A DNA stretch of 64,000 bases. It comes from Lytechinus pictus (lineage: Eukaryota). Both the position numbers and the translations under genes were made by a program. Of the stretch, positions 17,464 through 64,000 are shown piece after piece (positions within the stretch are counted from its first letter, which is position 1; each line of letters opens with the position of its first letter). Where the stretch lies: assembly GCF_037042905.1 (NCBI RefSeq), contig NC_087245.1, positions 8,124,001 to 8,188,000 on the forward strand. The letters are read 5' to 3'. The notes beneath the pieces were generated by a model. That model was not told the DNA's origin. It saw only the letters and a program-made list of their open reading frames with translations, and did no database searches.

Positions 17464-41430
<23,967 letters not shown>

Positions 41431-46629: not shown

Positions 46630-47088
46630 GTTGTACAACGCCTCGGAATTTAGCGAAAATATGAAAAAACAAAGCCGAGTTTATCCCTAGGCTAGGCGGC
46701 TAGGCCTATACTTACTAGTATAGTAATCTATGAAAAGGGAGCAAAAATACCGAAAGCAGAAAGCAAAATCCGTGTAGGCGCACATGACATTGGGCAGCCT
46801 TGCGTATTTAGCCAGCGCAATGAATTAAATCGTAATGTGACGTCACCTCCTAAAGCCGTGCAACGGTACATTTTGGATGGTACGTCTTTTGTGCAACGGT
46901 ACGAATGTTTGACATTCAGCCTCCCATTTGCTCGCGTACAACAAGCTAAGACTAAGTTAGGCTAAGTAGTAGACCAAAAGCTTCAGTCTCTGTATTTTGG
47001 TTGTTCCGCTGAACTACGTTGGCTCCACTCACCATACATAGACTGAAGGGGATGGGGCCCCGTACCTACACTGTAAGCCAACGTATAG

Positions 47089-48093
47089 CAAGGCTCGACA
47101 TTAGCGGTGGCCCGGGGCCACCAGAAATTCACCTCGGGCAACCATTAATGAAAAAATATTAAGTTTTGGTGGCCCGAACCGGGCAACCAATAATTTTCAG
47201 ATTAGTGCAATTTTTCTCCCCCTTTTGCACGCATTTATCAACTTTCTACAATTCAAATTGCAAGCCAGTTCGTCATGCGCCCTTTTTGTTGATCTACACA
47301 CAAACACACACACAAAGTTGGCCTACCGCTATAGCATTAAGTAGCTTTTATCCAGCCGGCTGCGCCGGCCGGCTGGCGTGAGCTTTGCATGCTTGAAGCA
47401 GCTGTGCGTTAGCAGCCTACTCAGACTCAGGGAGCTGCGATACGAAATGTTGCTGCTAAGAAATCTTCCACAGAACTATGAAAATCCAAGTCAAAGTCAC
47501 ATTTTACACCAATGAAATGCCCTTCTACAGACCTTTTTGCTAAAATCTGGTGTATCCTGATTATTTGCAAGCATTAAAAAGAGGAATCATGACCTCTCTT
47601 TTGACTCAAAAAGACCGATTTCCAAATGAAAATTATATACATAAAAACACATAGGTGAGTACATCACAGTCCCACATGTGCATTTGTATGTATGTTTTTA
47701 CTTGGTTTCTTTCGAAGCTGCGTCTTTTCCGGTCTTTTCTAGCCAAAAATAAACAGACAGTTACTTTCTTTCTTGTTTATAAATGATTTCTTAAACAACT
47801 CTTGAGAAAGAAAATACTTTGGGAAGGCATTTCATTATTATGAAATGTGAATTTTTCCAACATTTTGGCAAATTTAGGGAAGGAATTTTCTCACACTTTT
47901 TTTTGCTGTTTTATTATTTTCTTTCATTTTTTTTACAGTGGTTAAACCATTTATACCCATTTATTAATTTTTAATGTTTTTCTTTATATTTTTCGGGCCA
48001 CCAAACTTTAATATCGGGCCACCAAAAAAAATTATTCAAAGATTTTGGTGGCCCGAACGGGCCACCACCAAAAAAAGTTAATGTGGAGCCTTG
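47089..48093. mobile_element. Non-autonomous TIR element with 7-bp TSD (P-like or hATw-like)
   Basis: TIR CAAGGCTCSACATTA, TSD CGTATAG (47082-47088 / 48094-48100), subterminal GGTGGCCC/GGGCCACC repeats. Confidence 0.82.
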
Positions 48094-48499
48094 CGTATAG
48101 TGAACTAGCGTTTTATAGATCGCGATTTAAAACTGTTTTTTAAGCAAAATTGAAAGTTTCATGGTTTCCATTATCAGGGAAATATAAATAACTTAAAGGG
48201 GAATCCAACCCTGGTATTTCTGTATCATTTTCAAATGAAGAGTTTGATTCTGATTAATTTGATACCAAATTTATCCGAATCGGTTAAGCGAAACTGGAGT
48301 TATTGAAAGATTACGAACCCCAAAGTAGGTCTTTCAATTATCGTCTGCTGCTCATGCAAGTCGCCATTTCTAGTAGACCCCCAGCGAAGGTATGACGTAT
48401 GGCACGGACATCTTCGATCGCGAGCGCTGGCCTGGAGAGATCCGTCGCGCGCTAGCAGACGCTATTTCTATAGGTTCAGTGTGCAATTTACCGAGCAAG

Positions 48500-51400
48500 A
48501 TGGTGTTTTGCCAGGCCTACGGCTGCAACAACAGAACTGGAAAAAAGTGTGGAGGGAAATCTTTCCACCGATTTCCCAATCCCAAAACTAGACCGGACGT
48601 TTTCAAGAAATGGGCAGCAGCAGTGAAAGTAGAGAAATTTCTGCTAAAAAGCTACAAATGGACTCCAAATGACCAGATATGTAGCGATCATTTTGTGGAG
48701 TCCGACTACGAAGTCGATCTTCGTGCAAAATTGATGGGGACCAAACCGCGGGTTCTTCTAAAAGAAGACGCTGTTCCGTCGGTATTTTCATTTTCATCTT
48801 CATCGGGACCTTCGACATCATCAAGAGATGAGCGATCAGCTCAAGCAAGTTGTAAAGAGGTATGTTTTTCCCGTCTTTATTCCAAAAAGTACATGTTTTG
48901 TAGCTTGTTTGTGAAAAGTGAGTGCCATGGCCACGTGAGTTTTGCTTTGATTGCGTGTGTACAAATACGTCTTGTGGCGTAGTCTCTGCACATGCAGACC
49001 GCTGTTTGTTTGTTGATGTGAATGTCTCGCGATAAAACATCTATTTGTGATTTGATTTCACTTGTAAATTATGATAGTAAAAAAGGGTTACTGATGACGA
49101 TGAAAAGATCATGTAGCTGCCCCGACTTCTTTATTCAAATTGGTATGTTTCTTTAGATCTAGACCGCGCTTTGCTTGCACTTTTTGCAGCCATCGATCTA
49201 TTCTGACGACCGTGGTGGTGTTCCCTTGGACTTGCCATTCCCCATGACTAGCAGCCGCAGCCTTAGCTGCTGCATGCCTCGAATGTTCAGTGCGCTGTGC
49301 TCTCCCCCGACAGTATATGGCCATGATTCAGGGGCGGATCTAGGATTTGTCAAAGGGGGGGGGGGTGGGAAAAACGACAAGGGAAAAAAGAGGATTGGAA
49401 AATTTGGGGGGATTCTGTTTTATACTGTTATTTTTAATAGCGTTTTTACATTACAAATTTTAATTGTGCCTCTCAAAGGGCGGGGGGGGGGGGGCACGGG
49501 AAAGCTGTGCCCCCCTGGATCTGCCAGTGCCATGATGTGTGTGAAAGTCACAGTCCTACTTTTTTATTGTTTTGAAATTCGAAGGCTGCTAATTTTGCTA
49601 ACACTAACGCTACTACGGTACATGATTTGTATGACCTTCTTTCTTGGTATCATGTTTCCATTGGATTGGGCAGGCTAGAGGCAGTGTTGGAGACAGACAG
49701 TGCGTGTGCAAGGTCCTGTTTATCATAATATAGGAAAACAAAAAGTTTGAAAATAGAGTCTATCAGTTTTGACTTTGTTCTTGACTGATCAATTTTCCAT
49801 TGTGAGTGCTGTAGCCCCTGAATTAATCCACTTTGTTTGCTAATGCAGTTTATTTACAGATTAGCTTATCCTGGACCTGGTAGTGGTAGCTAAAGATTTT
49901 TGGTCTTTTTCTTTGCTCTTTTATTTTTATTCAATCATAAAAAACTTAGACTTAATTCATTATCATCTAGTCTTTAACCAAACGGCAAACGCCTGTTATT
50001 TTATTTATTTATTATTTACTTTGGAAGGTGGTTGGACTTTTTACACTAATATTTCATGCTTCCCATTGATGAATGCTGCCTAGTGGCAATGTCTTGTAAA
50101 GTGTGTGAATTGTAAAAAGCATTTGGACTAAGTTTATTTGGACCTGTATGTGAAGTGTTTTCAGGAAAACAAAGAAGTTTAATATTGATTTATCTCATTT
50201 GAATAAAACTCCTTTATATCGGAGGCACTCATAAGACATTTGGTACATTCATACTAATTTAAAAACCAAGCAATGAAAACAGCATAAAAACATCAATCCT
50301 TTTATAGACAGGGGTGTTTTAAAAAGAATGCTGTTCAAACAAAAAAAAGGCCTACTAGTTTTGGCATTGTTCTTGACTGGCGAACTGTCCATTGTGAGGG
50401 CTGAGGCTCCTGAATTAATCCACTTTGCTGCTTATACACATGAGCTTACCTTGGTAATCTAGATTATGGGTCTTTTGCTTTGCTTTGCTTTTTCTTAGAT
50501 TTATTAACATCTTAAAATTTTAGTCTAAAAAAATCATTGTATGAGGGTGGAGATGGCAAGGTCATCAGAGTATTTTCCCTCATTTATTTTTCTGTCAATT
50601 TTTGATACATGGAACTAACCAACTATGGCATTCTTTAATACCTGTACCTGATTGAATCATTTACTGATATATTTATTTGCAGTATCTTCGAACTGTTCTT
50701 GGAGAACGTCCTAGTGATCAAGGCGGTAAAGGCACACCTAAGACTGATAATGAATCCAATCATCCATGTACATCAACTTCTGATGATGTAAGCAAGCTTT
50801 CAATTTTCTTCCAACACTAGTGACAGATACTCAGAGAAACTACTTTCTAAAATTGCAATTCTTTTTTTGCCCATCATGTATAAGCACTACACAAAGTTGT
50901 CCTACAAATCAAGTAAAGTTTGTCCTATAGATCTTTGTAAACTGATTGTTTGATTGTCATTTTACCGATAAAGAATCAGAATGTGAGCACTTGTCAATTA
51001 GAAAATATTATGAAGTTATGCATTTATGTTAATTAATTCTGGTATTGGGGTAATTGGAACAATTCTGCTTGTGCTTAATGGTTGCAAATCATTTAGACAT
51101 TGTGTTGAGTGTATATATGGACTGCATTGTTTGCCATGACTTTAAATCAAAGCACTGTATGTACTTTCAAAATTATAAAGTTCAAGTCCTTGTATAGAAA
51201 CAAAAAGTTTATATTAAATGGTTGGAACTTGGAAGCAAACCTTGTGTGCTACCATACAGCGCTGGTTAATGATAATAAAATATTTCAGGCTTGCTTGAAA
51301 TTATAGTCAATACAGTAGCACGTATGTGCTTTTCTAGGTATAGCTAACAGAGGAAACAACATTTAGGACCAAACTATAAATAGACCGGCATTTTGCAATC

Positions 51401-54400
51401 TTCAATTGCTTATTACTCTTTAATTTCCTGAAAAATTGTTTGATATATATATTTGAAATTCTTTATAATTTTTTTTCAATTCTGTGAAATTTTACTTTCT
51501 TTTATGAGGTCTATACATGTTTGTCATGTAAAAATATCTTGGTAGATCTTTATTTTTCATTTCATTAACCACCAGCGTATATCAAGGACATCAAGTGAAA
51601 TGATTTCATGTGTTATATTGTACTACAGCTTGTTTTAAAATAGGGCTCTAGTATACAAAGTCATATTAGAATGCAGTTTACAAGACAGAAGAGTAGTTTT
51701 GGGGAGAAATATGAAATTAGAAGGAAAAAAACAAATGAATTCATTTGTGGTTTCTCCGCACATTTTTTTAAAAAACAAACTTAACATTTTGACTTACTAG
51801 ATATTCATTCACGTGTTAGGTTGTGATGAAGTAAAATAATACTCTGTCCATTTTTTGTTTTGTTTTTCTATACCTTATTTCTTAAAACTATTTCGTCCTC
51901 ACTTGCATTTCATTGTCACAAAACAATCTCTTTTCAGAAGTGTCAATTTGATTATCATGTTGTATCATTGCAAATTCACTATTACAGTCGGTGTTACCAA
52001 TGGAAGGAATTGAATCTGGTGGAGATGCTCCAAATGAAGAGACAACACAAAGCAGTAGTCAGGTATGTTTTCATTTTCGTCTCACCTGAACGAAGTTTGC
52101 CAGAGGCCCAGTGATCACTTTTTCTGTTGGTCTGTTACAAAAATGTTAAAGTTTTTGTTCAACTTGCTCTTGTTTCTTTATTTTTGCATCAATTATATTC
52201 ATAGTTTGCTTAAATGATCATTCAGTAATTGTGTGCTCATGAGAATAATGGGTCAGGGTCAAAGGCCATCTAGGGGGTCAAAAGGTTAACTTTTGTTCAA
52301 CTGATCCTTTGGTATTACCATGGAGCTATTAAACACAGATATAATAACAGATATAATAGCTCTATGGTATTACCACATATGTGTTCAGGAGGAAGAGGAG
52401 GTCAAAGGTCATCTATGGTTTTAAAAATCTAGTTGCAAATTTTTTCATTGATCGTGAAATCAGGGGAGAGTCTTGGTTCACAAACCTATTTAATAATGCA
52501 TAATTGCTGTGCAAGTAGTATGTCTTTTTTAGATGCATATATCAGAAAACGATCCATATATGCCCAAGAAGGGCTGTGAAGAGGCCTCATCAAGCAGTTC
52601 TTGGCTACTCGAAATAATTGAAACGGGCTTGACCTAGGTCACTAGTCATATCAGTTCTTTTGTCGAAAGCCACTACCTACTGGTTATTTCCATGTAGAAT
52701 AACTGACTAGTAAAAAAGAAATAATTAAAAATGAGGTCACTTTCAAAAAATTCCTGTTGCCCCTTGTAGAATTTTTAGCTCAGTAATGTTCTCATCCGTG
52801 TGTCTTGACTTTTAATACCATAATAGTGATTGATAAATATTTTTTTGTTTTGTTTCTAAAACAGTCGTTTCTACCAATTGAGGAGACAGTTTCAGATGGA
52901 GATGTACAGCCGAAACCAGAGACTCCACAGAGTTACTATCAAGTAAGAAGATCTGTTAATTCAACTCTTGTTTAACTTAAATAGTTCTAACATAAAAGAT
53001 CCATGGGAATCTTAGGTAAAGTATAAAAAAAAGGCATGCAGAATAATTGCATTCTCCATCAATGCTTCAATAGGAATGGATGATGTTAAAGTTCACTCAT
53101 GGATTTCATTATCTGACATTGTAAACACTTTTTTCAGTGACTCATATCTGTACTGCAAAACTTATTAGAGTACCAGTAAAAACAAGTTTAAATAGTTGAG
53201 TGCCAAAATATGAAAACATATTGAAAAAATATCACCCGAGACATTTCTTTGTTTATCACTTCACAGGGATCAGCTACTGGATTGACTACAGGTACTGAGC
53301 CAACACCTAAAAGGAGGAAAGGAAGTCGCAAAAGGAAAAGGAGTTCATCTAAGAAGGTATATTTCCATAGTAAACCTTTTTCATCAGTTATACTCTGTAA
53401 AGGGGAATCCATTTTTTTGGCCATAAGATTTTCTGTGAGAAGAGAGAGAGAAAAAAGAATGAGGAAAGTTTATGGGAAAAAAAAAACAGACAAGCAATAG
53501 CGAGATCATGGCTGATTTTAATGTTAGTTTCAAACTTAATAAGAGTATTACTACTAGAAGTGGTGGGGACAACTTTCATATAGACCATGTGCTCAATTAT
53601 CAGGGATTTGTGTTTTTTTCCTAAGTATGGCTGAGTATAGAGGTAGCATATTGTCCAATGTCATGGAAAGATATAATTTTAAGCAAAAATTATTGGAGAA
53701 AATGTTTTAACCATTATATTTATTAGACTAATTAAAAGACTTTTTTGTTTCCCTACATCACTGTAACCTCATCAATGTGGCAAATTAAAAAAATCATAAC
53801 TATCATTGTTTGTCAATTATTTCAAAAACTTATTTAATTATCTAATGTTTCCATTTCTCCTAAAAACAACTTTCTTTATTTAGGCTGAAATTCCCTTTAT
53901 ATGTAATGTTTTGTTGATCTTAATATGAGCTTGGGATCCTCTATTCATTAAAGTCTTTGATAATCTATTTTAGAATCAACCATTATTATATAGGTGAGGT
54001 AGAATTGGACTTGACAGCTGGGCTAAAGCTGGGTTAATGATTAAGCACAAAGAACATTGCATCATAATGCAATATATACATCATACAAAAATGTATTATT
54101 TCATTCTTTTTTGCAAATTATTCAAATACCATACCAAGGTCTGTAGGTTGGAGGTTACCGGTAATTGAATTGAAACAAAAATTGTTTTTTTTTCTCTTAT
54201 GTGAGACTCCCTTGCTATACTTATTAAATTTGTTATCATTTGTTGGGACTTTTATTCTTGTAAAACCTAATTTCTTAATACCCCTCATGTTTTTATCCAG
54301 AGGCAGAAATGCGTTGCAACATCTAACGCAACTACACAGACACTGTCATCTGGTCCACAACCAATGGAGGAGAAGATGTGTCAATGTCCGGATGATTTTT

Positions 54401-56262
54401 CCCATGTACGAAAGGACCATACTTATGCAGAAAGCTACCCTCGCATTCTAAAACCGGCCTTTGTGATGGTAGAGGTAGCGGAAGAGTCCCAAGCTTCAGA
54501 TTATGGAGGTGACTCTAGTCAGTCAGATAGTACTTCCCCTCAGCCTATACCTGATCTTACTGGACAAGATGAGTTCATGGTAGATACTTCTTCAACTGTG
54601 CCTACACCTGGTGTAACCATGCCAGATGACCCATGTCCTTCACCTGTATCATCTCAACATTCAGATTCATCCTCATCTTCGACTACAAGCTCTGTACCAA
54701 CATCTCCTTCACGTGGTGGACAGTCGTCTGACTCGTATAAACCATCTGATGAGTCGGATTCATCATCTTCAGAGGAAGAAAGAGAGCCTGATGAAATGAG
54801 ATACTGCATGGGGAAGAAATATGTGGTCTTTGATGAACAACTTAATGATCTGTTTTATAGACTTAAGTGTAAATCTTGTTCTGATGGCCACATTGCAGAA
54901 CTGAAAAAGTATACTGTAGGTACCATGCTGGTTGTTAATGTACTATGTGTGTGTGGTTCTCTTGTATACAGGTGGCAATCTCAACCAACCATTGGCAGGC
55001 AACCAGTTGGGAATCTATTGCTTTCTGCCTCCATCATGTTCACAGGCAAGACATATGAAGACTTCAAAGTACTGGCGGATCTTTTTAACCTACAGTTCAT
55101 GTCAGACACCACCTTCTATGACATCCACAACAAGATCCTCCTTCCTGTCATCCACACATTCTATACACAAGACGCCCATGAAGAACATAAGAATCGACCA
55201 CTCTCTATCTGTGGTGATGGGAGATGCGATTCACCAGGATACAATGCAAAATATTGCACTTACACGTGTATTGACCTTCAGTCAAATAAAATAATGGGCA
55301 TGTCGCTAGTTCATGTTAGCGAAGCAACAAGTTCCGTTGCCATGGAGAAAGTAGGTTGTAGGCGGGTATTAGACTTTCTTCTAGCATCATTGGATGTCAG
55401 TGTGTTTGCTACTGATCGGCATGCAAGCATTGCCAAAATGATGCGTGAGGTATTCCCCCAAGTGTGCCATCAATATGACATTTGGCATGTCACAAAATCA
55501 ATAAAGAAGAAACTCATCGAAAAGGCAAAACAAAAGGACAACGAAGTCCTGTGGCCTTGGACAAGGTCTATCACAAATCACCTGTGGTGGTCTACAGAAA
55601 ACTGTGATGAAGACGAAGTCATGCTGCGGGAGATGATCCAGTCAGTAACACACCACATCACTGACATCCATTCCTGGAATTCAGCTGAAAAGTTCCATGA
55701 ATGCGAACACGAGGAATTGACTCCAGAGGAAACAGAAGAAACAAAGTGGCTGGAACCAGGGTCAAAACCTCATGAAGCTGTCCAGAGTATCGTCTTCAAT
55801 CAACGATTAATGAAGGACACAAAGCAGATGACGAAGGCCTGCCATACTGGTGCGATAGAGTCCTATCATTCATTGTATCTCAAGTACTGCCCGAAACGCA
55901 AACACTTCTTCTACCCTGCCATGTTGGCCAGAGCAGAACTGGCAGTTCTTGACCATAACGCTAATACTGGCAGAGAGCAGGCAACCGTGAAGAGAGAAAG
56001 AACTGGAACTGCAAAGAAAGGGGCACTACGCTTTCGGTATGTGTGGTCAAAGTCCACCAAAGAGTGGGTTCTGAAGCGCATCCCAGAGGACAAGAACTAT
56101 GCATACCTTTGGGATATGCTTGTTGCAGTTCTACAAGTCAAGGCTGGTAACTTTGACCTTAAACAGCCGCAGTATCCAATCCTTCCTCAGAACATTGCAC
56201 CAATTCCACGTCCACCTCCTGAAGAACTCATAGAGCGGGCTACATCACGATTCAGCCATTGA
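48500..56262 (+). CDS. THAP-domain DDE transposase (Kolobok type), 6 exons, ~889 aa
   Basis: Exons 48500-48859, 50683-50787, 51988-52062, 52865-52942, 53267-53356, 54301-56262; all GT-AG, all phase 0, no stops. Exon 1 is a THAP domain (MVFCQAYGC..SFHRFP..W..ICSDHF..LKEDAVPSVF). The last exon has CKSC/CVCG Zn-ribbon pairs and catalytic-type motifs ICGDGRCDSPG, FATDRHASI, HQYDIWH, HTGAIESYHS..KYCPKR. The small internal exons are less certain than exons 1 and 6. Confidence 0.88.
49329..49529. mobile_element. hAT-like MITE in transposase intron 1
   Basis: CAGGGGCGGATCTAGG ... CCTGGATCTGCCAGTG with TSD CCATGATT/CCATGATG. Confidence 0.7.
52319..52366. mobile_element. 48-bp minimal P-like MITE in transposase intron 3
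   Basis: CATGGAGCTATTA ... TAATAGCTCTATG with 7-bp TSD GTATTAC. Confidence 0.65.
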
Positions 56263-59200
56263 TATCATGGACTTCAGGATGATACAATAATGAAGTGTTT
56301 CCAGCTTTCTATCAACCTACTTTATTAGATGACAAATGACAGTCTTTCATTCTTTTGACTTCGTGAGGCGAGTGATCGTTTACACATTTGCATGCTATTT
56401 GCACGTATGTCAGTTGCACACGTATCGGTGGAATTATGTAATATAGACATTTGATGAATCATACCAAATGAAAATGATATTCATCAACGAAACTGTTACT
56501 ATAGCAATATTGTGTTTTCCTACATTGCAGGAAACAGAAAGTAATCAACAGCTCATTAAGAACTTGAATATGACAAGACATTTCTAGTCTCGCCTTCATC
56601 TCTAGTGTTAAAAAAATGAATATACTTTTTAATTATACTTGTATTGATGTAAACAAAGCTTGTTTTGTTTGCCTAAGAAAGTGTATGCATTTTTTTGATA
56701 AAATAGAACTTCACTTTATATTACTATGATGTATTGCAATATTGAGGTGAAAAGTTAAATATAGTGTCCTGCTGGGTCTCAAAAATTAAACCTTAAGCCA
56801 AATGTCAGAAGAGAGAGAGAAAGAAAAAAAACATACAGTAGGCTTTCATCTTGATCGTGTATATCATACATTCATCTGTTCTATGTGAAAATAAATGCGA
56901 GATGGTTGAATCTAGATTTTCCACATGTATGCATTTCTTGACATTTTTTGAAATTACAATATTCAGCAGAATATGGTGACATTTGAGGACCACTTCCTGA
57001 TCACATCTTTATGTGGTGGTAAGGAATAGGTGGAAAAAAATTAGATTTATTTTCTAGCAAATCTAAAGGTCAAGTACTTGTATTTGTGAATCTGTAAAAT
57101 ACCAACAATGTACCAACAAACACTGTTTGTAAATTGATGTAACAAGGCAATGGGTCATCCCAGATGTTTCATGCATATTTTTTTCTCACCAGCACTGCAT
57201 GACTTTTGGTAGCTTCTTTCCGTCTTTATGATAATTTTTTTAATCAGATGATAAACCACATTTTGTTTTCGGAGATTACATATACTCAAACACACGATTT
57301 CTTGCACAATTATTGCTTTGGCATTAATTTATGATTAAAAACAATTATCCTGGACTTTTCTATGCTGAAGAAAATTGAACAGCTAATTTCTTTGCAAAAC
57401 AAATTGAAATACATCAGAAATAAAATTGATTTCAAAGACTTGTTTTCTTCATGGAATTTAAAGCATCATTTAGGGAATTAAAGCAAAATTTGAATTATTC
57501 ATAAAGTAAGAATAATATATTGTTGGCTGATTACATCATCTGTGTGAACTGTCTTTTGACGACCAAGGTCTCATGGGGGAGGGGGTGTTGAATGTGCCTT
57601 AAGGGAAACCTCAAAGGCACATCATGACTGTTTTTACCCTTCTATCTTTTGGAATGGTAGAATGGGATCAGGTTTAAATCCTATAAAGTACTCATGATTT
57701 CTTTAGGGGCTAGAGAGGAAGAAGGTTATACATTTTTTTGTATATACATGATCACATATTGTAGATACGTTGAGGAACGATACTGATTTAGAGTCACAAG
57801 TTAAGATTGGTCTCCAAATGAAATTGTTTCTCATTGGAAGCAGTCGCTGGATTAAAGCACTTTCACATTTGTTAAATATTTTTTAGACTTGATTCTGAGA
57901 ATACACATGTTTAGTGTATAATTAAACAGTTTGTTTTGACTTATACCTTTGAGATATAAGTGCAAGCAGAGTGAAGATGTTAGTCATTCAATGTGTGTTG
58001 CTTATCAAATTTATTATTTGTTTGTATATAAAATATTTACATGTTTTATTGATAGGGAGGAGATATTTTAATGACATCTATTAGCATAACTGGTCATTAA
58101 TTTGATACCTGGTATTCGTTTTTTGATAAAAATCAGACTCACATTGTCTGAGCATTTGCTTTGTATGTATTCCCTGAAGATATAAATGTACATGTAAATG
58201 GTGGTTTTATAGGGGATGGGCTGTGAGGGTCACATGACTCATTATCTGACCTTAATTTTATCCGTCTTGGAATTATGTTTCAACATTTTTCTTTCTGTAG
58301 TTTCCAGATGACAGGCATTGATGCACTTCAAAATAGTGCATTCTATCTGAGGTTCAGAGTTCCATTGCAGCATATGAAATGATATGTAAACAACTTTGTG
58401 GATAAAAGCATTAAATTATATCTGTTAATTAATTAACTGAATTGACATTATACATTTGTGATCTGTCATGGCAATCTTCATACGAGGGGGGAGGGGGTAG
58501 TCTATAATCTAGGCGGCGTCTTCAGTATTTTTCTTTGCCTCTTATGTACCCCAGTCTGGTACTTTTTCTCAAAATGTCAGTAAGATGCAGAAGACTATGC
58601 AAAGCAGCTGCAATGTAGCCACCTTTGAAGCCACTGTGCACAGTCTTCCATGTCACAAATATTGCTCATGTTGGTGTAGTTGTAAATATATACCTGCAGC
58701 CGTCCGCCACCTACATTATAGGATATGTGGTGGGGGAGTGTTATTTCAGAGGGGAAAAGAGGTAGCAGCATACATACAAATACACACATGCAGAGAGAGG
58801 GGGGAAGGGCCATATAAATGGATAGAGAGCAGAGAGAAGTTTGTGAGATTGAGAGGAGAAAGCAGTGACGAAAGTGAGATGAAAAGTGTGGTTTGATAGG
58901 GGAAAAATATTAATTTTTGAATAGTCTTTGTATACATCAACCTTTGATAAGTAGACAAAAACAAGCTTTTTCATCATCAGCTCTCCATAACATCTTGTAA
59001 TAAGGAAGCTTGTATGGAAAAGAAAAAATAACTGAATGTTTGAGATTAATTAGGCAAGTAGTCATGAACACATGAATATTGAAATCACCTATGATTTGGA
59101 GACACCCTCCCCCTTCCCCCTATTGGCAAGCAACCAAGAATTGTGATGTCACAGAAGCCTATTTGTACAGTGAAATATACACCAAGGCATCTGTTTCTGT

Positions 59201-59461
59201 TCATTCTAATGATACAACAAACTTTTGGTTGTATGTTATATGAAAATTCCATAACATCTTTTCATGGAAAAAGAAGAAGTCATGTTCTATGGATAGTCTT
59301 TTTAAGAATTAGAATTTAGAAAATGTGAGTAGAAAAGAAATTGGGAGTGACAAGTAGATAATGTACATGTTGGTCGAAATGTAAATGGGAGGATGTCCAC
59401 ATAAGTTATCTCAATATTCAAGTGCCTATAACTTTCATCGTATTTGTTTAATTTTGTTTAA

Positions 59462-59950
59462 AGGGCAAGTCCACCCCAACAAAAACTTGATTTGAATAAA
59501 AAGAAAAATTCAACAAGCATAACACTGAAAAATTCATCAAAATCGGATGTAAAATAAGACAGTTGTGACATTTAAACTTTCACTTCATTTCACAAAACAG
59601 TTATATGCACATCTCGGGTCAGTATGCAAATGAGGGAACTGATGACATCACTCACTCACTATTTTGTATTTTATTACATGAAATATGAAATATTTTGATT
59701 TTCTCGTCATTGTCATGTGAAATGAAGTTTCATTCCTCCCTGAACACGTGTAATTCCATATTTTAACATTTTGTGGTTTAATTCAAAAATTTAAATATTG
59801 TATAATTCAAACAATAAAAAACAAAAGAAATGGTGAGTGAGTGACATCGTCGACTCTCATTTGGATGTAACTGGCTTGTTCATATAACTATTTTGATAAA
59901 AATAAGCGAAACTTTGAAATGTCATAACTTTCTTATTTTACATCCTATCT
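59462..59950. mobile_element. Kolobok-type MITE (right-truncated) inside the autonomous Kolobok
   Basis: TTAA|AGGGCAAGTCCACCCCAACAAAAACTTGATTTGAATAAA..CATCAAAATCGGATG; same family as 15075-15611. Confidence 0.75.
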
Positions 59951-60119
59951 TTAATTGATTTGCTTCTTTTTTTGTGTGTTTTTAAAGATTCCATTCTCCT
60001 TAATGTCAAATTTGAAATTTTAGTCCAAAGTTGGGATTTGACTTTGGCAGATTCGCTTGTACTCCTTTCTCTCATGTTCTTACATGTATCACTCTTATTC
60101 CATACCATCAATTCTCCTT

Positions 60120-60340
60120 TCATGTCCATCCCTCATTGTGCTACCCTTTTCTACACTTTCCTCCCAGCCCCCCCCCCCTAGTCTTTACTTCACATCCATC
60201 CCTCATTGTTCTTCCCCTTTCCACACTCTTTCATACATCTTTCCTCCCCCTCTCTTTACTTCATATTCATCCCTCATTGTTCTAGCCCTTTCTACACTCT
60301 GTAATATCTCTTTCCTCCCCCTCTCTTTACTTCTGTCTCC
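60120..60340. repeat. Pyrimidine-rich tandem repeat, ~70-bp unit x3
   Basis: CATCCCTCATTGT..CCCTTT.TACACT recurs at ~60128, ~60197 and ~60268. Confidence 0.7.
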
Positions 60341-61847
60341 CTCCAGCTACATGTATCTCATTAATGTTCATCTCCTACTCCCTCTCATTCGTAAAAGATA
60401 TCCACGACATAGGATAAGGGAAAAGAGAACATGGAATGAGGTATATAAAGGCAAGGCAGTCAATTTGTGCTCAGTAGACTCTCATTCCATAATCTTCATG
60501 TCTATATCATTAACACTACATACATGTATAGTTTGTATACATGACACTTCACACCATTGATATCATGTTTGGATTGAGAATCAGATTTAATATTCACTAT
60601 TTTCTTATAACTGAAAACCAATACAATACATGTAGGTACATGTACAAGTGAAATCATATAAAATGAGATATAAGAATTTCTCATCAGGGAGCTACATGTA
60701 ATATACAGTAATCATCAATTGCAGTTATTTAAGATAGGACCAGACATGAGAATTGTGCAATAAAAAAATAAAAAAATCAGAATCAGGAAAATTTCTGTGA
60801 CTCAATCTTTACTGCAAAACCCATGATTAAACTAAAGAAACAAACCAAAATGAAAATACAGCAACTGTAAATTAAATATAACAGTGGTTATTTAAATGTA
60901 CACCTCAAGCTTGAGAAAGTCCAGCATTATCAAAGGAAAAATGCCTTGTTGGTACTGTTTAGAAAAGTTGCCTCATAGTTTCACTTTTTACAAATAATTT
61001 CATACCTTAAAATGTAAAGCCATACTTAATATATCATACTTTTTTTAAAGCATGTTGTTCTTTGAATCTAATAAATTAACCGATTGACAGATAAGTGAAG
61101 GATGAACAGTGTTATTACTTCTGTACAAGTCTCATAGATAGATTTATCTCCACACTCGTATTATCTTCAACACTAATTCATGAGTCTGTTCATGTATAAG
61201 ATCATTTATTTTCCAATTAAAATCACTAATGTTTATATTTCATTACAATCACAGGTATGATTTGAAACTTGAAAGTACGCTTCTATATATAAAAAAAAAA
61301 TCTCTTCACGGGTTATACATGTAAGCAATCTTCTGTAATCTGAAAAACAGACAGGCAACATGTGAATGCGACATACATAAATCATAAAATAACATTACTT
61401 CAAAGTTCAATGTCGATGCTTATACATGTACTTAGTAAATATTAACAGTGTAAACAAATTACAGACACATGTGATGGAACCCAGTGTCTCATTTTGTTCT
61501 ACAAAATTTGTACCACGTAGTAGCAGATAGCATTCTTTCAAGTAAAAAGTGAAACAAAACACTAGAAAGTAATAAATATCTACAAATATCCATATTGAAA
61601 GAAAGTGCATGTTTGAACACAGACAGAAATTCTTCACATAAAATATCATTTCTAATGCATTGTATACATGCAGGTACCACCTGAGAAGGGGTGTTTCACA
61701 AAAATGTAAGTCTCAACTTAGGGTTGTACCAAAGTGCACAGTCGCATGTGTAAATAAAGAAATCATTGCATCGATAAAGGAAAAAAAAAATCATGCTACG
61801 GTAAGAGAATATCATGCTACTGTACGTATACGAGTCCATCCACTTTT

Positions 61848-63339
61848 TCAAATCAGAAATTCTTCAGGGACAGGAATATCATCTCCATCATCTCCCTCCT
61901 TGAATCCGATGTAATTTCCATCTGGTTCAGGGAAAGCCTCGCGGATCCGTGTGACAGCACAGGCAGGAATCACCCGACGGACGCCCTTTCCCAGGTAGCC
62001 ATGGACCCAGTAGGTAAATAGCCTGTAGGCTGCGTATCTGTAGGAACTGGAAAAAAGGGGAAGAAAATCATTACTGACATTGATAATGAATTTTAACATC
62101 ACATAACGCAAATGTTAGAAAACACGGTATTGACTTTGCAGTTGTGGGTAGATTACCGTAATCCTCCTAATTATTACATGCATCAATAGCAAGGTAGTAT
62201 TAATTTCTGATGACATATTACATGTACATGTCCCCGGGGGGGGGGGGGGGGTAGGGCCACTTCCATTGACGAGTGGATACCATGCGGGGCCTTGGGTATT
62301 TCCATTAAAATGTCTGAAAATGCACCCCTTGCACCTGTTGGAAACAAAACGATACTCTTTCCAGTCTTGGCAAGTTCCCTGAATTGACCCCCTTAACAAG
62401 TACAGCAATATTTCTATTGTTATTTCACGGCTGTCGGCCTTCGGTTTTACCTTCTCCAACATCATTGGGCTTAATACAGCCCCAACTCTCACATCTCGCT
62501 CAAATCGTATTCTAAACACATACTGTAGTGTTGACTCTCGGTGCAAAAGTACATGATTACATCCTTACATTATTTTTACTAAAAAACTAAGTCTTAAGTT
62601 TTTACACCCTTCCAAATTTGACCCTAACACGAAGCTTTTATAGCAAAAAATAGATACCCTTTTTATAATTTTATGTTTTCGACACCCTTACCAAGCTACG
62701 TACATAACGTGCCCTATCTTGAAAAAGACTTCCTTTTCACATATTTTTGGGGTCGTATCTACTAATCAATGTAGGCCTACATGTAACAAGTGCCCCCCCC
62801 CCCCCCTCGGGTTACATGTATAAAAAATTTTTTTTTTAATGGGTGGGTTCACGTCTGAATGTGTCCCACGTCTTGGCTAGTAGAACATGTATTTTATTGG
62901 AAAGTGGCAAGGTCGCAAAGTCAAAGATATTGTCATTTCATTTCACTTACATGTTATCAAGCACTTCAGGCAAGTTCCTTCGATGCCCTCTTGAATCAAG
63001 TCTGGCGACAAGGGCTGTCCGCAAAACCACCCTCTCCATGCATACTTTCTGAAAGTCCTCGTGTCTCACAATGCAAGTTATCCTTGCATCTAGAAACCGA
63101 TCACAGTTGTCCACTTCATGGCAACAGCGACACTGAATCACTGACGGCATGGGCACACAGCTCCCACACTCACACCAGTCGTTGTTGCCCATTCTATTCG
63201 GAGCTGGTACGGGGTCAGGTCCGGGTGGCGGCTGCACCGGTGGAGCAGCTGCTGCGGCGGCCGCTCGGGCTCGTCGACGAACCATCAGTTCTTCCTCGGT
63301 GTACTTTGGCTGGAAATCGTAGCCACGAGGCCCTTCCAT
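61848..63339 (-). CDS. Stand-alone P2X7 cytoplasmic-ballast-like Cys-rich protein (KolX-type accessory protein), 2 exons, 195 aa
   Basis: Exon 63339-62951 (MEGPRGYDFQP...WCECGSCVPM..CRCCHE..ITCI..HEDFQKVC; GTAAGT donor, phase 2) plus exon 62046-61848 (ttccAG acceptor; SYRYAAYRLFTYWVHGYLGKGVRRVIPACAVTRIREAFPEPDGNYIGFKE). Matches the P2X7 C-terminal pattern WCxCGxC..CC..C..RHCAYR..W..LPSCC..IR.EFP..G.Y.GFK. No transmembrane or ectodomain exons found. Confidence 0.88.
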
Positions 63340-64000
63340 GAGCTTCAATTTCAAGATCACGAAATTAAAACAAGAGTCGAAAACCCGCGATGACGAAAGA
63401 TTTACTCGTAAATGATCAAATAAGTAAATATTTTTTAAAAAAATGAAAGTTCCGAGTGCAATCGAGTACGGTATAGCGTTGAAGACTACGAGCGACAAAG
63501 TGATAAAGCCGTTTCGCGTTTTTCTGAGTGGCCAATCTGAGAATAATCATTCTTATTTTTTTGTTTTTTCATTTTTCTCTTTGATATTGTATTAAAAAAA
63601 ATTTAAAAAATATTAAATGTGTTTAATAAATATTTAAATGCACCTGGCAATTTTTTTTTTTTTTTTGGACAAAAAATACATGTATCAATCATCATGATGG
63701 TGTTCATTTATTGTCCAATGAGAAGACGTCTTTACGTAGTCCGGGCCATACGTCACGAATATCGCTGAGAAGTCAAACAATGGCGGCTTCCATGGGTGAG
63801 AAAAATTGATTCAATTAAATGCAATTTTCTCTGCAATTTGGAATCGGGGAGACATGAACGACATGTCATTAGAAAGGTCAAAGATAGGCCTTTCTTATGA
63901 CGTCGTTTTTTCCCTGCCCTGGATTCCCCTTTAAGTAATTGCATACCTTGGGCCGGAGTTATTGAAAAAAATCCTCTGGATGATTGAGAAATCTGTCATC

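Follow-up and report, generated by a model that had tools for sequence, protein, structure and literature searches.

A very probable full-length Kolobok transposon of the Kol0 lineage in Lytechinus pictus, with convergent genes for a THAP-DDE transposase and a P2X7-ballast-like protein

A stretch of 64,000 nucleotides of Lytechinus pictus (RefSeq assembly GCF_037042905.1, contig NC_087245.1, positions 8,124,001 to 8,188,000 of the forward strand), here called the window, contains what is very probably one full-length autonomous copy of a Kolobok DNA transposon of the Kol0 lineage, inserted at TTAA within a young high-copy repeat. The whole element occupies positions 48197-63930 of the window (15,734 bp), has TTAA on either side and carries two genes that face each other: one for a transposase on the forward strand (48500-56262) and, convergent to it, one for KolX on the reverse strand (63339-61848). 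It is mobile DNA, not two host genes. A preliminary description, made from the letters of the window, had placed between these same borders a complete Kolobok element with an 11-bp terminal inverted repeat (TIR), a TTAA duplication and two uninterrupted spliced open reading frames (ORFs) pointing inward, one for a THAP-DDE transposase and the other for a P2X7-ballast-like protein, and had set it apart from the KolobokP type; all of this was confirmed. As far as the sequence goes, every Kol0 feature that was checked against published descriptions is present. The element forms a separate family of a kind already described, since the two-gene architecture and the link between KolX and the ballast were published earlier, as the available part of that paper makes clear (Kojima and Bao 2022, PMC9587614). 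Both frames are open, the termini and TTAA are exact and a sister copy differs by 0.6% in substitutions, which indicates that the family moved very recently; this copy, with its open frames, exact termini and exact duplication, may still be mobile.

Element borders and target site

The borders read AATAAC-TTAA-AGGGGAATCCA on the left (48187-48207) and TGGATTCCCCT-TTAA-GTAATT on the right (63920-63940), and comprise the following features.

48193-48196, no strand: left copy of the TTAA target-site duplication, read at the left border
48197-48207, + strand: left TIR, AGGGGAATCCA, with a 5'-AG terminus (repeat search pair I16)
63920-63930, - strand: right TIR, TGGATTCCCCT on the + strand, with a ...CT-3' terminus (repeat search pair I16)
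63931-63934, no strand: right copy of the TTAA target-site duplication, read at the right border

The inverted repeat of 11 bp is exact, as is the target duplication, and the termini 5'-AG...CT-3' are of the RR...YY type that characterizes Kolobok. Long terminal direct repeats, by which a KolobokP element would be recognized, are absent from 47000-64000, where the longest direct repeat is internal and 86 nt long. No nuclease ORF was found among ORFs of at least 50 amino acids (aa) in a Pfam scan, the other long ORFs in the element (49163-49678, 58513-58896, 60042-60560 and 62115-62564) had no Pfam match, and an Rfam search of 47000-64000 returned no match.

Copies in the genome and the interrupted host repeat

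The genome searched comprises 812 Mb in 368 contigs, in which the window corresponds to C1:8124001-8188000. The left-end 304 bp gave seven matches, every one of them starting from query base 1, and the right-end 331 bp gave six, five of which extend to the last base. The exact 11-mer was found at 11 distinct termini, flanked by TTAA in nine cases, by TTTA in one and by GAAG in one, with unrelated sequence beyond. Because the shared ends stop at the same base in other genome loci, the combination of the terminal 11-mer with TTAA is beyond chance.

A second full-length copy (C16:1286492-1302890; 16,399 bp) is collinear with the window copy from the first to the last base, and has its own TTAA at both ends and flanks unrelated to those in the window. 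Five aligned blocks, each 96.6-99.6% identical, contain 93 mismatches over a total of 15,527 columns (0.6% substitutions); among the indels, stretches of ~220 bp and ~100 bp are additional in the window copy and one of ~960 bp is additional in the C16 copy. Both copies have every intron, the intergenic region and the nested repeats in common, and thus the whole 15.7 kb moved as one unit. All splice sites are kept in the C16 copy, in which an additional A (+1) at the equivalent of 54524 breaks the frame between THAP and core; this frameshift explains why the public model of the C16 copy (P0001) has 550 aa. KolX of that copy differs from the window KolX by F96L only, a change at a position that at least 90% of relatives conserve. 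The further matches are older end stretches of 162-1153 bp at 68-96% identity, lengths that refer to the aligned stretch and not to the full extent of a copy, the loci having been read with 1.5 kb on either side of the match.

The insertion lies ~100 bp inside a very young high-copy host repeat (63931-64000 and L008:1832-2231, and also 48094-48196): the right-flank 400 bp occurs in at least 40 places at 100% identity, with 522 candidates. In all four of the uninterrupted right-hand repeat copies that were fetched, aaatataaataacTTAAgtaattgc stands with a single TTAA, which represents a paralogous empty site. The corresponding joint, 48192>63931, with 15,738 bp skipped and four shared letters, is also present in contigs of X1 and X2, two public contig sets assumed to be RNA, and in reads of two raw RNA runs (27 in X19 and 15 in X20). 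With hundreds of host-repeat copies present, the simplest reading of this joint is a paralogous one; it shows the borders and the duplication of the element. The empty site (TAAC-TTAA-GTAATT) and the other TTAA-flanked copies that the preliminary description had anticipated have thus both been found. An allelic empty site was also considered, and was set aside as unproven in view of the high-copy repeats on either flank.

The host repeat itself is transcribed in public RNA runs, and the 8 kb downstream of the window (L032) contains no ORF of at least 150 aa. Another high-copy repeat (47797-~48100; 1446 candidates, of which the listed copies are 95-98% alike over ~300 bp) abuts the host repeat on the left and seems to interrupt or truncate it at ~48094.

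The transposase

The six exons of the transposase gene add up to 2670 nt (889 codons, then a single stop at the end), and all of its introns are GT..AG.

48500-48859, + strand: exon 1, with the start codon and the THAP zinc finger (Pfam THAP, E 7.2e-15, at 48500-48772, over which homologues also align; donor GAG/gtatgt at 48859)
50683-50787, + strand: exon 2 (acceptor tttgcag/TAT; donor joint 50787>51988 in transcript contigs)
51988-52062, + strand: exon 3 (GT..AG joints in X1 and X2 contigs; frame checked)
52865-52942, + strand: exon 4 (joints 52062>52865 and 52942>53267; frame checked)
53267-53356, + strand: exon 5, with the basic stretch PKRRKGSRKRKR (joint 53356>54301, GT..AG)
54301-56262, + strand: exon 6, with an acidic/serine-rich linker, the DDE core and the stop codon (48-sequence alignment, structure model, homologues)
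56263-58389, + strand: transcribed region past the transposase stop, a probable long 3' untranslated region (near-contiguous contigs over 54299-58389 in X1 and X2)

Four of the five junctions (50787>51988, 52062>52865, 52942>53267 and 53356>54301) are found in contigs of X1 and X2, as joints given after alignment shifts, 52942>53267 occurring in X2 only with one letter between. The spliced contigs show that X1 and X2 do contain RNA. For the remaining junction, between exon 1 and exon 2 (48859>50683), we infer the joint from homology: it restores CKE/YLRTVLGE, parallel to AKRYLQSVLEE in a sister protein (P0002) that has THAP and core in one chain. Past the stop codon, AATAAA occurs at 56890 and 57419, and the listed X1 pieces leave a gap at 56722-57117 within the coverage of 54299-58389.

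The THAP domain has its zinc-binding residues (C4, C9, C61 and H64), P26, W38 and F65, and AVPSVF at 91-96. The basic stretch PKRRKGSRKRKR is likely a nuclear localization signal. In the core, the catalytic triad consists of D542 (55216-55218), D608 (55414-55416) and E756 (55858-55860), which are D141, D207 and E355 in core numbering; a DxxH motif lies at residues 629-632 (D629/H632; 55477-55488), and an H2CH finger is formed by H688, H693, C704 and H706. An alignment of 48 homologues has invariant columns, in core numbering, at D141 and D145 (GDGRCDSPG), E184, D207 and H209 (ATDRH), D228, H231, H262, H287, H292, C303 and E355, and H305 is conserved in at least 90% of them. The 663-codon open frame 54271-56262 has 180 database homologues at E<=1e-3. 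Homologues are present in the genomes of Xenopus tropicalis, amphioxus, a hemichordate and a coral; for the one from X. tropicalis (P0113), the alignment takes in 97% of the large exon, with an identity of 30% and E 2.9e-94.

An AlphaFold model of the 488-aa core reached a predicted local distance difference test score (pLDDT) of 93.4 and a predicted template modelling score of 0.89. The best solved fold is the transposase of ISCth4, of the IS256 family (E 2.8e-6; template modelling score 0.45-0.47 on the target), and further fold matches include retroviral integrases, the P element transposase (ranks 14 and 16) and Hermes (rank 27). The core is thus a DDE enzyme with an RNase-H-like fold, close to the transposases of Mutator, P and hAT. 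Sister proteins match Pfam 'Mutator-like transposase'.

KolX

The KolX gene has two exons separated by a gt..ag intron and encodes a protein of 195 aa.

62951-63339, - strand: exon 1, with the start codon and the cysteine cluster WCECGSC...CRCC...C (Pfam P2RX7_C; P0121, 99-100% identical)
62047-62950, - strand: intron, gt...ag, with a nested poly-G repeat at ~62225-62360 (splice model; repeats D4, D8 and I9; high read depth with loose ends)
61848-62046, - strand: exon 2, with the stop codon and the C-terminal ballast half, including R133, Y137, R153, C159 and R165 (Pfam P2RX7_C, E 2.8e-11)

The spliced product is identical to a database protein, P0121, named 'P2X purinoceptor 7-like'. The transposase models are named 'uncharacterized protein'. 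Names of this kind for the two genes had been foreseen in the preliminary description. The whole protein matches Pfam P2RX7_C (E 1.2e-17) and residues 467-593 of P2X7 in the PDB (E 3.9e-12). Its predicted structure (pLDDT 90.4) retrieved nothing but P2X7 at E<=0.001 (13 chains), any further match being no better than E 2.5, and overlays the P2X7 fold with a root mean square deviation of ~3 Å over ~135 columns. A 160-nt transcript contig covers 61827-61986, in KolX exon 2.

The KolX family is large: a cut-off of E<=1e-3 takes in 2692 representative clusters, and one of E<=1e-10 takes in 735. Among 80 relatives, seven cysteines (C56, C58, C61, C72, C73, C89 and C159) are each conserved in at least 90%, as are W55, F96, R133, R153, R165, P157, P169 and Y175, and Y137 is invariant. 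Two of the five guanosine diphosphate (GDP) ligands of rat P2X7 are kept, R546 and R578 corresponding to R133 and R165 of KolX, and the other three, H547, R574 and K583, are replaced by Y134, V161 and E170. The same pattern at the GDP site is described for invertebrate ballast-like (ZCD) proteins in the available part of a structural study (Rump et al. 2020, PMC7016195).

The two genes in other families

The transposase core and KolX exon 1 were used as queries in a search of the genome. Each of the nine matches that span the full core, from residue 1 up to 486 or beyond, is accompanied by a KolX match on the opposite strand 6.7-10.0 kb downstream. They lie at C1 (the window copy itself), C16:1.29M, C15:21.0M, C19:7.7M, C29:1.0M, C6:19.1M, C13:23.1M, C22:0.84M and C16:10.8M, and make up about five diverged families. 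A tenth core match covers residues 2-411, has three stops and is without a KolX partner, and six of the 15 best KolX matches (E<=1e-20) have no full-length core nearby. The two proteins diverge in parallel: core identities of 59, 57, 54 and 50% go with KolX identities of 56, 51, 46 and 47%.

Four other families were fetched, and each has THAP, core and an inward-facing KolX with exon 2 and exon 1, so that the co-occurrence of both ORFs in the same convergent order, on which the preliminary description had staked its reading of one two-component system, holds elsewhere in the genome. TTAA-flanked TIRs beginning with AGG were found in three of the four, the elements being 15.5, 20.9 and 17.5 kb long. 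In the C22 family no TIR was found by the exact-prefix method, and its copy has two in-frame TGA codons.

Two observations on related sequences were made in passing. A high-copy non-autonomous Kolobok element of ~1.05 kb (L033:4578-5630, L034:4570-5629, L035:4571-5630 and ~45 further places) is flanked by TTAA, has the TIR AGGGGTGGTCCAGGCCAG, similar to the right end of the element described here (AGGGGAATCCAGGGCAG), and carries a remnant of the first exon of KolX (MSGPAGYAFQPRW...WCRCGNC); its copies are ~97% alike. Fragments of the transposase core also form tandem-looking arrays at C5:46617166-46623636, C9:12068375-12072953 and C1:38667530-38684214, in which the same 80-120 residues recur every 0.5-1 kb.

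Subterminal motifs and a nested repeat

Apart from the TIRs, the two terminal regions share motifs in mirrored positions, and a high-copy repeat is nested between the two genes.

48362-48403, + strand: left subterminal motifs CGCCATT (48362-48368) and TGACGTATGGC (48393-48403), mirrored near the right end
63745-63785, - strand: right subterminal motifs, the reverse complements of TGACGTATGGC (63745-63755) and CGCCATT (63779-63785), mirrored from the left end
59460-59951, no strand: nested high-copy repeat with 38-nt inverted arms at 59539-59576 and 59914-59951 (repeat pair I1; in both full-length copies)

Two inverted 11-mers are common to both terminal regions, the TIR and TGACGTATGGC, and the chance expectation for further 11-mer matches is ~0.04. 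The distances from the left and right ends are 197 and 176 bp for TGACGTATGGC, and 166 and 146 bp for CGCCATT. In diverged copies (L003, L005 and L010) the distance between the core TGACGTA and the end is unchanged, and the C6 family has a pair of GTGACGTCA at 197 and 186 bp. These mirrored motifs may be promoter elements or transposase-binding sites of both ends.

The nested repeat is probably an abundant element of the miniature inverted-repeat transposable element type, carried along in the Kolobok move. Its summed depth in the transcript contigs is ~55,000 in the bin 59214-59747 and ~32,000 in the bin 59748-60281.

Alternative explanations

Several observations weigh against reading 48197-63930 as an autonomous copy. 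Of the junctions to which RNA was to be mapped according to the preliminary description, the four of the transposase given above stand, and both the exon 1-exon 2 junction and the KolX splice junction are absent among the listed joints of X1, X2, X19 and X20. Depth in X1 and X2 is nil over 48534-49067, KolX exon 1 is almost without depth in the transcript data, and X19 and X20 have almost no depth over either gene. The public model of the locus (P0274; 770 aa; 'uncharacterized protein LOC135153137') skips the THAP-coding part, being exactly M plus exons 2-6; since no ATG/gt other than the start codon itself (48500; ATG/gtgttt) precedes exon 2 within the element, this model implies a THAP-skipping splice, 48502>50683. 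The window copy is without 9 bp (IQD) after 55167 that are present in the C16 copy and in the transcript contigs, and thus the contigs come from another copy or allele; X2 carries the +1 A at the equivalent of 54524, and X1 contigs break at that position. The core itself stays below the Pfam cut-offs (MULE, 20.3 bits vs 27.6; ISL3 is also sub-threshold). The search of the own genome yielded only two full-length copies, and short non-autonomous elements with the exact TIR did not turn up among the genome matches. Finally, the read joint 48192>63931 is no proof of an allelic empty site, of insertion polymorphism or of excision.

A first alternative is that the element is a genuine Kol0 copy but already immobile, an intact-looking recent fossil disabled by the 9-bp core deletion, by THAP-skipping splicing or by host silencing, with KolX irrelevant or an inhibitor. 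The deletion relative to the sister copy and the transcripts, the origin of the contigs from another copy or allele, the THAP-less public model, the count of two full-length copies, one of them with a +1 frameshift, and an empty site between high-copy flanks that paralogues can explain would all be in keeping with it. However, the catalytic and zinc-binding residues are all intact, the TIRs and the target duplication are perfect, the copies are only 0.6% apart in substitutions, and the in-frame deletion falls in a stretch, ahead of the first catalytic strand, in which homologues are of varying length and also have gaps. We regard immobility as a serious possibility to which somewhat less than an even chance is given.

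Far less can be said for the view that the two ORFs are adjacent host or domesticated genes, the TIR and TTAA being coincidental or the second copy a segmental duplication. Their public names, 'uncharacterized protein LOC135153137' and 'P2X purinoceptor 7-like', would suit it, and in Xenopus, according to the part of PMC6004289 available, domestication of Kolobok transposases has occurred on many occasions. Yet the similarity of the second copy is bounded exactly by the TIRs, with unrelated flanks and its own TTAA; older fragments stop at the same base; the host repeat without the element has one TTAA in four of four copies; and the two-gene unit recurs between TTAA-flanked TIRs in three of the four other families. 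We consider this explanation extremely improbable.

No more credible is an assignment to another TTAA-targeting or THAP-bearing superfamily, either piggyBac, some families of which have a KolX-like gene, or the P element, whose transposase has a THAP domain and is found at ranks 14 and 16 of the fold matches. The target duplication of the P element is 8 bp, and that seen here is 4 bp. No piggyBac transposase family appeared in the Pfam scans, and both superfamilies are at odds with a best fold of the IS256/Mutator type and with the match of the sister proteins to Pfam 'Mutator-like transposase'. The termini here are AG...CT, and piggyBac termini are contrasted with the RR/YY of Kolobok in the available part of PMC9587614, where the KolX relatives borne by piggyBac are said to be without most of the seven cysteines, all of which are kept here.

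Three observations bear on present mobility: both ORFs are intact, two copies are 0.6% apart in substitutions, and an empty-site joint occurs in reads, indistinguishable from that of paralogous host-repeat copies.

Proposed mechanism and significance

A working model can be drawn for the element, in which the transposase steps are taken from established knowledge of DDE cut-and-paste transposases. A promoter within each terminus would drive one inward-facing gene. The basic stretch would take the transposase to the nucleus, where the N-terminal THAP finger would recognize subterminal DNA; the DDE core would then cut at the AG...CT termini and join the ends to TTAA, duplicating it. KolX, with its zinc-cluster ballast fold, may sit on the transposase core as a cofactor.

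The last step is drawn from a complex prediction. The core with KolX scored 0.57 vs 0.00 for the best of three controls, a result graded as 'weak support'; the mark used is reached by 51 of 78 solved complexes and by 2 of 108 mismatched pairs, and among those reaching it, scores of 0.60 or less belong to five of the 78 solved complexes and to all four passing mismatches (of 180). Agreement between runs extends to at least 35% of contacts, with a partner pLDDT of at least 68. The prediction thus lends weak support to a contact between KolX and the transposase core. A bolder proposal, which we put forward as tentative and rather unlikely, is that KolX is an obligatory core-binding partner, comparable to the Myb-like protein of Harbinger or to RAG2 with RAG1, that it may couple transposition to guanine-nucleotide or zinc status, and that the mirrored motifs co-express the pair. 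If this were true, the P2X7 ballast would descend from a transposase cofactor, and this copy, being intact and recently moved, would make it possible for the first time to study by experiment a Kolobok element and the role of the ballast fold.

As the kind of element is already known, the value of this copy is practical: it lies in the intact state of the element and in the weakly supported contact of KolX with the transposase. In the literature, as judged by titles and abstract openings for part of the matches, no assay of transposition by a Kolobok element was found. An intact gene pair is a sensible starting point for studying the role of KolX and the ancestral job of the P2X7 ballast. There is also a consequence for annotation, in that labelling transposon genes as host genes ('P2X purinoceptor 7-like') inflates the apparent P2X7-like families of invertebrates.

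Further repeats and neighbouring genes

A repeat with a long run of G at its end is nested twice in the element, at 49348-49492 in transposase intron 1 and at 62225-62360 in the KolX intron, and RNA reads contain a joint going back from 62256 to 49478, between these G-run repeats. Elsewhere in the window lie two host genes on the reverse strand: a single-exon sulfotransferase ORF at 1694-2662 (Sulfotransfer_2, E 3.4e-54) and an exon of a bystin homologue at 18705-19178 (E 2e-32).

Comparison with known systems

Kol0 elements encode a transposase and KolX, the latter with the ballast fold, make TTAA duplications and have 5'-RR..YY-3' termini, and the P2X7 tail probably derived from KolX; these statements follow the available part of the paper by Kojima and Bao (2022, PMC9587614), which also describes the type family, Kolobok-1_XT, after Kapitonov and Jurka. 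The window element resembles this lineage in its TTAA, its short TIRs of the form RR...YY, its transposase with DDD/E, DxxH and THAP, and its KolX with seven cysteines. By comparison with the published description there is no difference in kind, and the element represents a separate family. The Kol0 hosts named in the part of PMC9587614 available are vertebrates, annelids, cnidarians and sponges, a list in which echinoderms do not figure. Points to be noted beside the Kol0 description are the great length of the window element (15.7 kb), the five introns of its transposase gene and the single one of KolX, and the repeats nested in it.

The full-length XKol elements of X. tropicalis (Hikosaka et al. 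2018, PMC6004289, as far as available) are alike in having AG termini, TTAA flanks and a length of more than 12 kb. Their transposases share with that of the window the DDE residues, a THAP domain (C2CH, P/W/F and an AVPTIF-like box) and H2CH. The TIR sequences differ, and the available part of PMC6004289 does not mention KolX.

KolX has its closest structural counterparts in the P2X7 ballast (6u9v, 9e3m and others) and, according to the part of PMC7016195 available, in nanor-like ZCD proteins, the likeness consisting in the fold and in the set of zinc-binding cysteines. The difference is one of context: KolX is a free-standing transposon protein of 195 aa, whereas the P2X7 ballast is the tail of an ion channel.

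Transposons that encode a transposase together with a second protein are represented by PIF/Harbinger, with a transposase and a Myb-like protein, and by ProtoRAG, with convergent RAG1-like and RAG2-like genes; in these systems the partner binds the transposase. The Kolobok element of the window may work like them, in that one pair of TIRs encloses the genes of both a DDE transposase and a second protein; the likeness is confined to this arrangement, and the proteins are unrelated.

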